NCBI RefSeq assembly: GCF_003334385.1
Contig: NZ_QOWN01000003.1
From: Escherichia coli
GTDB taxonomy: Bacteria; Pseudomonadota; Gammaproteobacteria; Enterobacterales; Enterobacteriaceae
Reading direction: 5' to 3' (one strand)
DNA length: 64,000 bases
Part shown: positions 2,263-30,202 of the stretch, piece after piece
How the letters are laid out: every line of letters begins with the position of its first letter
Numbering within the stretch: position 1 is the first letter of the stretch
The notes under the pieces: model-generated
What the model saw: the letters and a program-made list of their open reading frames with translations, nothing else
Told to the model about the DNA's origin: nothing
The model's database searches: none
Program-made: the position numbers and the translations under genes

Positions 2263-2703
2263 ATGAAATTGGAATCGCCACTAGGTTCTGATCTGGCACG
2301 GTTGGTGCGCATATGGCGTGCTCTGATAGACCATCGCCTGAAACCGCTGGAGTTAACACAAACCCATTGGGTTACGTTACACAATATCCATCAGTTACCT
2401 CCAGACCAGTCGCAAATTCAACTGGCAAAAGCGATTGGCATCGAGCAGCCATCACTGGTCCGTACTCTGGACCAACTGGAAGAAAAAGGGTTAATTTCGC
2501 GTCAAACTTGTGCCAGCGATCGTCGGGCTAAACGTATTAAACTGACGGAAAAGGCAGAGCCGCTGATCAGCGAAATGGAAGCTGTTATTAACAAAACCCG
2601 CGCGGAAATATTACATGGCATCTCCGCAGAGGAACTGGAGCAACTGATTACGCTCATCGCAAAACTTGAGCATAATATCATTGAGTTACAGGCCAAAGGG
2701 TGA
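2263..2703 (+). CDS. slyA: MarR-family transcriptional regulator SlyA
   Basis: Translation ...[39 protein letters not shown]... matches SlyA. ATG at 2263 gives 146 aa; the K-12 annotation uses the TTG at 2269 (144 aa). Confidence 0.9.
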
Positions 2704-2749
2704 AATGAAGGGGGCGTGTGGTCAGTAACCTGACCACACGCAAACTTAT

Positions 2750-3217
2750 TTAGCGCGGAGAAACGGTCACCTGACTGCCATTGCTGGCCAGTACGACACG
2801 TTGGCCCGGAGAGAAACGAGTGTTGCCTTGTTTCTGTACCACCATGATGGTATTACCATCGTCTTTACGAATTTCCAGCTCGACACCCTGCGTTTTGTTC
2901 ATTGCACTCTGTACGCCCTGACCAGCTACGCCACCTGCAACAGCGCCTGCTGCAGTAGCCAGAGAACGCCCGGTTCCGCCACCAACAGTATTCCCCAGGA
3001 AACCACCAAGAACAGCACCGCCAATTGCACCGATAACGTTGGAATCATCACCGCCCTGAATCTGTACCGGACGTACGTTAACGATGGTGCCATAGCTGAC
3101 ATTCTGTACTTGTTTCGCTTCAGAAGCGGTATAAACATCCCCTGACAGGGTGTCGTTATTAACACAACCGACAAGAGACAGACCTACCATTGAAACAACC
3201 AATACGCGTTTAATCAT
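2750..3217 (-). CDS. slyB: Outer-membrane lipoprotein SlyB (glycine-rich)
   Basis: 155 aa, lipobox LVGC, Gly-rich (AIGGAVLGGFLGNTVGGGTG); matches SlyB. Confidence 0.9.
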   Translation of the reverse strand: MIKRVLVVSMVGLSLVGCVNNDTLSGDVYTASEAKQVQNVSYGTIVNVRPVQIQGGDDSNVIGAIGGAVLGGFLGNTVGGGTGRSLATAAGAVAGGVAGQGVQSAMNKTQGVELEIRKDDGNTIMVVQKQGNTRFSPGQRVVLASNGSQVTVSPR

Positions 3218-22145: not shown

Positions 22146-24941
<2,796 letters not shown>

Positions 24942-25052: not shown

Positions 25053-25820
25053 GTGTTTAATTCTGACAACCTGAGACTCGACGGAAAATGCGCCATCATC
25101 ACAGGTGCGGGTGCAGGTATTGGTAAAGAAATCGCCATTACATTCGCGACAGCTGGCGCATCTGTGGTGGTCAGTGATATTAACGCCGACGCAGCTAACC
25201 ATGTTGTAGACGAAATTCAACAACTGGGTGGTCAGGCATTTGCCTGCCGTTGTGATATTACTTCCGAACAGGAACTCTCTGCACTGGCAGACTTTGCTAT
25301 CAGTAAGCTGGGTAAAGTTGATATTCTGGTTAACAACGCCGGTGGCGGTGGACCTAAACCGTTTGATATGCCAATGGCGGATTTTCGCCGTGCTTATGAA
25401 CTGAATGTGTTTTCTTTTTTCCATCTGTCACAACTTGTTGCGCCAGAAATGGAAAAAAATGGCGGTGGCGTTATTCTGACCATCACTTCTATGGCGGCAG
25501 AAAATAAAAATATAAACATGACTTCCTATGCATCATCTAAAGCTGCGGCCAGTCATCTGGTCAGAAATATGGCGTTTGACCTGGGTGAAAAAAATATTCG
25601 GGTAAATGGCATTGCGCCGGGGGCAATATTAACCGATGCCCTGAAATCCGTTATTACACCAGAAATTGAACAAAAAATGTTACAGCACACGCCGATCAGA
25701 CGTCTGGGCCAACCGCAAGATATTGCTAACGCAGCGCTGTTCCTTTGCTCGCCTGCTGCGAGCTGGGTAAGCGGACAAATTCTCACCGTCTCCGGTGGTG
25801 GGGTACAGGAGCTCAATTAA
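25053..25820 (+). CDS. hdhA: 7-alpha-hydroxysteroid dehydrogenase (SDR family), GTG start
   Basis: 255 aa (M)FNSDNLRLDGKCAIITGAGAGIGKEIAITFA... with Rossmann GxGxxG and YxxxK motif; matches HdhA. Confidence 0.9.
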   Translation: MFNSDNLRLDGKCAIITGAGAGIGKEIAITFATAGASVVVSDINADAANHVVDEIQQLGGQAFACRCDITSEQELSALADFAISKLGKVDILVNNAGGGGPKPFDMPMADFRRAYELNVFSFFHLSQLVAPEMEKNGGGVILTITSMAAENKNINMTSYASSKAAASHLVRNMAFDLGEKNIRVNGIAPGAILTDALKSVITPEIEQKMLQHTPIRRLGQPQDIANAALFLCSPAASWVSGQILTVSGGGVQELN

Positions 25821-25913
25821 TACACTAACGGACCGGTAAACAACCGTGCGTGTTGTTTACCGGGATAAACTCATCAACGTCTCTGCTAAATAACTGGCAG
25901 CCAAATCACGGCT

Positions 25914-25927
25914 ATTGGTTAACCAAT
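25914..25927. promoter_or_regulatory. Perfect 14-bp palindrome ATTGGTTAACCAAT upstream of uidR (UxuR/ExuR/UidR-type operator candidate)
   Basis: Palindrome read directly; resembles the TTGGT-N-ACCAA core of hexuronate-regulon operators as I recall it. Confidence 0.5.
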
Positions 25928-26040
25928 TTCAGAGTGAAAAGTATACGAATAGAGTGTGCCTTCGCACTATTCAACAGCAATGATAGGCGCTCACCTGACA
26001 ACGCGGTAAACTAGTTATTCACGCTAACTATAATGGTTTA

Positions 26041-26631
26041 ATGATGGATAACATGCAGACTGAAGCACAACCGACACGGACCCGGATCCTCAATGCTGCC
26101 AGAGAGATTTTTTCAGAAAATGGATTTCACAGTGCCTCGATGAAAGCCATCTGTAAATCTTGCGCCATTAGTCCCGGGACGCTCTATCACCATTTCATCT
26201 CCAAAGAAGCCTTGATTCAGGCGATTATCTTACAGGACCAGGAGAGGGCGCTGGCCCGTTTCCGGGAACCGATTGAAGGGATTCATTTCGTTGACTATAT
26301 GGTCGAGTCCATTGTCTCTCTCACCCATGAAGCCTTTGGACAACGGGCGCTGGTGGTTGAAATTATGGCGGAAGGGATGCGTAACCCACAGGTCGCCGCC
26401 ATGCTTAAAAATAAGCATATGACGATCACGGAATTTGTTGCCCAGCGGATGCGTGATGCCCAGCAAAAAGGCGAGATAAGCCCAGACATCAACACGGCAA
26501 TGACTTCACGTTTACTGCTGGATCTGACCTACGGTGTACTGGCCGATATCGAAGCGGAAGACCTGGCGCGTGAAGCGTCGTTTGCTCAGGGATTACGCGC
26601 GATGATTGGCGGTATCTTAACCGCATCCTGA
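26041..26631 (+). CDS. uidR: TetR-family repressor of the glucuronide operon
   Basis: 196 aa MMDNMQTEAQPTRTRILNAAREIFSENGFHSASMKAICKSCAISPGTLYHHF...; matches UidR (GusR). Confidence 0.9.
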   Translation: MMDNMQTEAQPTRTRILNAAREIFSENGFHSASMKAICKSCAISPGTLYHHFISKEALIQAIILQDQERALARFREPIEGIHFVDYMVESIVSLTHEAFGQRALVVEIMAEGMRNPQVAAMLKNKHMTITEFVAQRMRDAQQKGEISPDINTAMTSRLLLDLTYGVLADIEAEDLAREASFAQGLRAMIGGILTAS

Positions 26632-26960
26632 TTCTCTCTCTTTTTCGGCGGGCTGGTGATAACTGTGCCCGCGTTTCATATCGTAATTTCTCTGTGCAAA
26701 AATTATCCTTCCCGGCTTCGGAGAATTCCCCCCAAAATATTCACTGTAGCCATATGTCATGAGAGTTTATCGTTCCCAATACGCTCGAACGAACGTTCGG
26801 TTGCTTATTTTATGGCTTCTGTCAACGCTGTTTTAAAGATTAATGCGATCTATATCACGCTGTGGGTATTGCAGTTTTTGGTTTTTTGATCGCGGTGTCA
26901 GTTCTTTTTATTTCCATTTCTCTTCCATGGGTTTCTCACAGATAACTGTGTGCAACACAG

Positions 26961-30202
<3,242 letters not shown>

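Follow-up and report, generated by a model that had tools for sequence, protein, structure and literature searches.

The 64-kb window, by which we mean the whole stretch of DNA that was analysed, carries the gene order malY-malX-malI-hdhA-uidR-uidA-uidB according to its open reading frames and the RefSeq annotation, and its segment 25821-27030 is identical to E. coli K-12 MG1655. The uidR gene (also gusR; 26041-26631, plus strand) encodes the repressor of the glucuronide operon, a TetR-family protein, as judged from the 196-aa ORF, the RefSeq annotation and the presence of PF00440 in its homologues. Upstream of uidR the sequence reads at 25914-25927 as the perfect 14-bp palindrome ATTGGTTAACCAAT (no strand assigned), which an earlier reading of the letters without database searches (referred to as the sequence-only reading) had placed about 115 bp upstream of the gene; the palindrome is present and we measured 113 nt between it and the first uidR ATG (26041). 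Perfect symmetry ends at 14 bp, the next two symmetric positions being mismatched. Within the palindrome lies TTGGT-TA-ACCAA (25915-25926), i.e. the core of a UxuR-type GT-N2-AC box, and the corresponding 18-bp site spans 25912-25929. The hdhA terminator hairpin (25833-25863, plus strand), an inverted repeat with the 12-nt arms CCGGTAAACAAC and GTTGTTTACCGG that are 100% complementary, ends 50 nt 5' of the palindrome and delimits the uidR regulatory region on its upstream side. A built-in scan also gave a terminator-like match on the minus strand (25914-25898), which is a weak stem, and a search of window 25700-27100 against Rfam at E<=1 gave no match.

Perfect palindromes of 14 bp are found five times in the window, where first-order Markov simulations predict 4.6. 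This corresponds to the chance rate, so the palindromy of ATTGGTTAACCAAT alone is no evidence of function and its rarity was dropped as an argument. Its particular sequence, unlike its palindromy, is beyond chance: TTGGT-N2-ACCAA, with its ten specified bases, is expected approximately 2e-4 times in the 220-bp spacer (arithmetic estimate). A full-text search of the literature with the palindrome sequence itself had an unrelated paper as its sole match.

According to Suvorova et al. 2015 (PMC4494728), GntR regulators of the FadR subfamily recognise TKGT/ACMA palindromes, and the gap between GT and AC is 2 nt for UxuR and 3 nt for ExuR, FadR and PdhR. The half-sites of ATTGGTTAACCAAT, TTGGT and ACCAA, fit TKGT/ACMA perfectly and its centre reads GT-TA-AC, that is 2 nt and the UxuR type; reading it with N3 spacing gives three core mismatches. 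ExuR and PdhR/FadR-type boxes (TTGGT-N3-ACCAA) have the same half-sites as the uidR box and differ from it in the 3-nt gap. The resemblance to operators of the hexuronate regulon, put forward in the sequence-only reading for UxuR and ExuR alike, is borne out and at the same time narrowed to UxuR (GT-N2-AC), and not ExuR (GT-N3-AC).

The K-12 hexuronate loci were fetched and their intergenic regions scanned for TTGGT/ACCAA boxes. Boxes with N2 spacing were found in the gntP/uxuA spacer (TTGGTCAACCAT and GTGGTTAACCAA) and upstream of uxuR (TTGGTTGACCAG and CTGGTCAATCAA), and in the scan of the K-12 hexuronate promoters only the uidR box had zero core mismatches. The UxuR operators of gntP/uxuAB and uxuR share with it the half-sites, the 2-nt GT-AC gap and an A/T-rich right flank, and like them it is positioned 5' of a hexuronide/hexuronate pathway gene; moreover, 15 contiguous bases (TGGTTAACCAATTTC) are common to the uidR box and the second box of the uxuA spacer, GTGGTTAACCAATTTC. 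The ExuR-controlled K-12 promoters (exuR, uxaB and uxaC/exuT) gave only degenerate matches, for which N3 fits as well as N2. There are also differences from the UxuR operators. The uidR box is located farther upstream of its likely promoter than those of gntP/uxuAB and uxuR, and it is single whereas the boxes of uxuR, uidA and Yersinia uidA are paired (20 bp); visual inspection for a partner 20 bp away turned up only CTGGCAGCCAA (25894-25904), which has another spacing and was not counted. In addition, purified UxuR selects the gntP/uxuA spacer in vitro in genomic SELEX (PMC5934670), and with UxuR alone gntP/uxuA was the single specific target in genomic SELEX(-chip), while the uid region, including the uidR box, was not selected (PMC5934670). 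With respect to AAATTGGTATACCAATTT, presented as the UxuR site of the uxuR promoter (PMC8092373), no occurrence was found in the K-12 gntP-uxuA-uxuB-uxuR locus at <=1 core mismatch, and it seems to represent a consensus and not a native site.

A weight matrix was generated from ten other boxes, leaving out the uidR box and its Escherichia orthologues; the training sites are defined by motif, not by footprint, and score 16.7-24.7 bits. Scanning the 64 kb (approximately 64,000 positions) with this matrix ranked 25912-25929 first with 22.1 bits, followed by a match of 17.4 bits. Comparison with the UxuR and ExuR motifs, which the sequence-only reading had suggested as a check, hence returns a perfect TTGGT-N2-ACCAA that is also the top match in the window. 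The second-best match, TTATTGGTCAACCAGAAG (23383-23400), lies within the coding sequence of malX and recurs in Escherichia sp. MOD1-EC7003; it is probably due to chance.

The hdhA-uidR spacer is unusually variable, and of 5,414 E. coli genomes 2,103 show 90-95% and 952 show 80-90% identity to the window. We aligned 11 Escherichia alleles, comprising eight E. coli alleles spread over this identity range together with E. whittamii, MOD1-EC7003 and a divergent E. coli. In the alignment the box is a conserved island with 11/14 invariant columns, compared to 8/50 in the upstream and 16/33 in the downstream flank. Only two changes affect the core: T at 25915 is replaced by C, and the central A (25921) by G, where the latter results in TTGGTTGACCAA, a form also found at uxuR; the gap downstream of the box is invariant in every allele (57 nt; n=11). 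The sequence-only reading had named missing conservation of the palindrome in other strains as part of what would refute its proposal, and the 11 alleles do display this conservation. An 8-bp indel, GCGTGTGC, is located just 3' of the hdhA terminator (region 25864-25875 of the window, alignment columns 89-96); it is absent in the K-12-like alleles and carried by most divergent E. coli alleles.

Scanning genome contigs with UidR gave only three Escherichia loci, and distant orthologues were obtained by protein search and contig look-ups, whereby UidR homologues at 50-66% identity were traced to their contigs. In Enterobacter and Cedecea (61-66% UidR identity) TTGGTTGACCAA is located 78-79 nt before the gusR ATG, and gusA-proximal boxes are found in six genera besides Escherichia, with three boxes, spaced 20-22 bp apart, in Yersinia. 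No TTGGT-N2-ACCAA-type box was detected upstream of gusR in Salmonella, Buttiauxella and Mixta, and UxuR-type input to uidR is therefore not universal; for Buttiauxella and Mixta, no box was present anywhere in the uid spacers scanned. Together, the uid regulatory spacers of nine genera contain 12 boxes (<=1 mismatch) in 3.95 kb where approximately 0.3 are expected. Boxes with <=1 mismatch occur in control DNA (106 kb) at <=7.5e-5 per bp, and the uid spacers are enriched 40-fold.

A twin of the palindrome, ATTGGTTAACTAAT (26962-26975; no strand assigned; 15.0 bits), is positioned 46 nt before the uidA ATG, with the weaker neighbour AAGGTTGACCAG (26983-26994; 14.4 bits) 20 bp downstream of it. 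At this site, where β-glucuronidase is under classical dual UidR/UxuR control, 13/14 bases are identical to the uidR box of the same locus (one mismatch relative to ATTGGTTAACCAAT), and the twin box presumably binds the same regulator. It is conserved in the Escherichia alignment as part of a block that is conserved throughout, in contrast to the uidR box, which is a lone island in variable sequence. The palindrome CTGTGTGCAACACAG (26941-26960) adjoins the twin box, and exact repeats are found within 26658-26699 and 26941-26960, GATAACTGTG at 26658 and 26941 and CTCTGTGCAA/CTGTGTGCAA at 26690 and 26946; these sequences may be connected with O2, the second operator of GusR.

A cross-genus k-mer search identified yet another element, TCGAACGAACGTTCGGTTG (26785-26803, plus strand), with the core CGAACGTTCG and the consensus TmGAAyGAACGTTCGrTTG, as a candidate UidR/GusR operator of the O1 type. 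It is present once per locus in nine of nine genera in a constant orientation relative to gusA, and it is unique in the window, since scanning for CGAACGTTCG with <=1 mismatch gave a sole match at 26790; in the hdhA-uidR spacer there was no match to the core at <=2 mismatches. The GusR/UidR operator O1 (TetR family; described by Little et al. 2018 according to Pellegrino et al. 2023) is, like the uidR box, a palindrome-containing uid regulatory element, and the primers used to delete this high-affinity GusR site remove approximately 26684-26845 (Pellegrino et al. 2023). This interval, which we located via the deletion primers, contains TCGAACGAACGTTCGGTTG and neither of the TTGGT boxes, and the O1-type element differs from the uidR box in sequence, in position and in being present in all nine genera. 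Autoregulation of uidR by UidR through ATTGGTTAACCAAT, which the sequence-only reading had also considered, is unsupported, because the UidR-type motif is this different element, which recurs in nine genera, lies inside the O1 interval and is absent upstream of uidR.

The gene arrangement varies among the genera. A single spacer lies between the divergently oriented gusR and gusA of Enterobacter, Cedecea, Salmonella, Buttiauxella and Mixta, while the two genes are organised in tandem in Erwinia, Pantoea and Yersinia; Erwinia and Pantoea have the cluster uxuB-uxaC-regulator-uidR-uidA-uidB with uidR 16 bp 3' of the GntR/FCD regulator gene. The spacer order in the divergent genera is gusA-box1-O1-box2-promoter-gusR. 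On this basis the tandem order in Escherichia looks like an inversion with its breakpoint between O1 and box2, which would have left box2, but not an O1-type site, with uidR.

The 80 nt directly 5' of uidR (25961-26040) are near-invariant among the 11 Escherichia alleles (73/80 columns) and are preceded by 100 nt that are highly variable; the conservation of this block is beyond that expected from the UidR protein identity (92-97%). The block contains TAGGCG (25984-25989)-17 nt-TAAACT (26007-26012), a candidate conserved uidR promoter (25984-26012, plus strand; pattern defined after inspection), a perfect TATAAT (26029-26034) and the imperfect dyad AGTGTGCCTTCGCACT. The pattern TAGGCG-17-TAmACT keeps a fixed distance to the ATG in Escherichia, Enterobacter, Cedecea and Salmonella (TAAACT vs TACACT outside Escherichia), with TGGGCC-17-TACACT as its Buttiauxella counterpart. 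Judging from the sequence, its transcription start would be near 26019, and relative to this start the box is centred at about -98.5 in all Escherichia alleles and at about -60 in Enterobacter and Cedecea.

An alternative promoter for uidR has been published in a list of constitutive RpoD promoters, TTAACC-17-TATACG, with the hexamers assigned from sequence (Shimada 2014). Its -35 element (25919-25924) is inside the palindrome and its -10 element is at 25942-25947 (promoter 25919-25947, plus strand). TTAACC agrees with the consensus at 4/6 positions and is conserved or improved, the A to G variant of E. whittamii and E. coli strain SCPM yielding the better TTGACC. TATACG likewise has 4/6 consensus positions, lacks the final T and varies among the Escherichia alleles (CATACG, CTTACG, TAAACG and TTCATG). 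In Enterobacter and Cedecea there is no acceptable -10 element 16-18 nt 3' of the box, and a built-in promoter scan of the hdhA-uidR spacer predicted no promoter on the plus strand. We favour, by a modest degree, the conserved proximal promoter TAGGCG-17-TAAACT over TTAACC-17-TATACG; as a third possibility, the TATAAT at 26029-26034 might give rise to a leaderless uidR transcript. The first uidR ATG (equivalent to window 26041; locus position 2498) is ACG in E. whittamii and SCPM, so in these two uidR starts at the second ATG (window 26044), which may be the real uidR start in K-12 as well.

The palindrome matches UxuR operators in sequence, is conserved in Escherichia, recurs in other genera and is distinct from the UidR-type motif. 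We consider it likely that it represents a UxuR-type operator (GntR family, FadR subfamily) and that UxuR acts on uidR through this predicted site. The half-sites are common to other members of the FadR subfamily, and what points to UxuR in particular is the spacing, the context and published genetics. We infer that UxuR occupies the uidR box, and likewise its mode of repression. UxuR, a repressor that responds to fructuronate/glucuronate, would act on uidR via the box, possibly in complex with its paralogue ExuR, and the near-identical box by uidA would link the genes specific for glucuronides to the state of the hexuronate pathway downstream. As to published data, uidR is counted in the UxuR regulon with reference to Suvorova 2011 and others, and uidABR is activated on glucuronate and upon deletion of uxuR (PMC10016265). 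The regulatory role that the sequence-only reading assigned to the palindrome, either cross- or autoregulation, hence holds in part: the predicted cross-regulation of uidR by UxuR fits both the conservation data and these published reports, while UidR autoregulation via the palindrome is unsupported.

Other explanations for the box were weighed against a UxuR operator. One is that the palindrome is the operator of UidR itself and serves autoregulation, as its location 5' of uidR and the near copy 5' of uidA, a known UidR target, might suggest. Repressors of the TetR family bind palindromes and often control their own genes, and Blanco et al. 1985 reportedly described uidR as negatively controlled by UidR as well as UxuR. 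Nevertheless, it is TmGAAyGAACGTTCGrTTG, and not the TTGGT box, that co-occurs with uidR/gusR in nine genera and that is found inside the published O1 interval, outside of which both TTGGT boxes lie. Buttiauxella and Mixta, moreover, have UidR and the O1-type element without any TTGGT-N2-ACCAA box, and the same type of box is present at uxuA, gntP and uxuR, none of them a UidR target; taken together, a UidR operator at this position is extremely unlikely. That the main protein at the uidR box is ExuR instead of UxuR is somewhat easier to envisage, considering that the two are paralogues with related motifs for which overlapping gene sets and heterodimers have been reported. Given the UxuR-type 2-nt gap, the three core mismatches introduced by the 3-nt reading, and the much more degenerate boxes at exuR, uxaB and uxaC/exuT, where N3 fits as well as N2, we still regard it as clearly unlikely.

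The bases of the box might alternatively be kept mainly as the -35 element (TTAACC/TTGACC) of the distal uidR promoter, and not as a site for a regulator. The assignment of a constitutive RpoD promoter in the spacer (Shimada 2014) and the improvement to TTGACC in E. whittamii and SCPM are in keeping with this, but conservation extends over 11/14 palindrome columns and thereby further than six -35 bases, the paired -10 element is poorly conserved and without its key final T, and Enterobacter and Cedecea lack an acceptable -10 at 16-18 nt, all of which makes this explanation very unlikely. Least probable of all is that the palindrome arose by chance, or that it serves a different FadR-subfamily regulator (e.g. 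PdhR-like proteins that bind TTGGT-N3-ACCAA), and has no role in uid regulation: the box forms a conservation island, occurs in other genera, has N2 spacing and ranks first with the matrix, and uid spacers are enriched 40-fold in such boxes, all of which speaks against it, even though palindromes of 14 bp occur at the chance rate in the window and TKGT/ACMA half-sites are common to the subfamily.

How a UxuR operator would function depends on which promoter is used. If uidR is transcribed from TTAACC-17-TATACG the box covers the -35 element, and since TTAACC is inside the palindrome UxuR would repress by occlusion. With TAGGCG-17-TAAACT as the promoter, repression from near -98.5 (about -60 in Enterobacter/Cedecea) would need upstream contacts, e.g. 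cooperation with another bound protein or looping. For a simple repressor, a box centred near -98.5 relative to the conserved promoter-like element is unusually placed. A more elaborate scenario, which we consider unlikely, is that UxuR acts non-occlusively from about -98.5 on a promoter with a weak -35 element (by cooperation, looping or contact with RNA polymerase) and that uidR is kept for a role beyond uidABC, the latter suggested by two Escherichia lineages that lack uidABC and keep an intact uidR, the box and the promoter block. In these, Escherichia sp. MOD1-EC7003 (locus 2377-3091) and E. coli SCPM-O-B-8794 (locus 2372-3088), uidABC has been lost and uidR is directly followed by an opposite-strand ORF of 502 aa, which corresponds to K-12 ydgA by size and position only; MOD1-EC7003 is also without hdhA. 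The loss of uidABC represents either a recent deletion or a hint that UidR has a role beyond uidABC.

The link between UxuR and uidR, which connects glucuronide and glucuronate control, is already in the literature. Rodionov 2000, Suvorova 2011 and RegPrecise are said to list a UxuR box upstream of uidR. On account of the regulon listing described above, together with Blanco 1985, Rodionov 2000, Suvorova 2011 and RegPrecise, we rate the finding as already known, and the uidR box opens no new question. The candidate site would constitute the physical basis of this known wiring, in which the protein that represses glucuronide uptake and hydrolysis is coupled to the regulator of glucuronate catabolism further down the pathway. 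It is relevant for interpreting β-glucuronidase regulation in gut Enterobacteriaceae and, to a modest extent, for the reuse of GusR and gus promoters as glucuronide-responsive switches; the "native gusR promoter" of one published construct starts 3' of the box and would therefore lack UxuR input.

Two further observations concern neighbouring genes in the window. Relative to K-12, uidB has a 1-bp deletion and adjacent substitutions at 29254-29256; as a result the glucuronide transporter gene is split into two ORFs (28830-29300 and 29192-30202), and the strain probably carries a uidB pseudogene. Just 5' of the malI start (23913) and near the 5' end of malX, there is a perfect 16-bp palindrome, GATAAAACGTTTTATC (23789-23804), and 80 bp apart from it a copy of its 12-bp core, TAAAACGTTTTA (23869-23880), which are presumably MalI operators.
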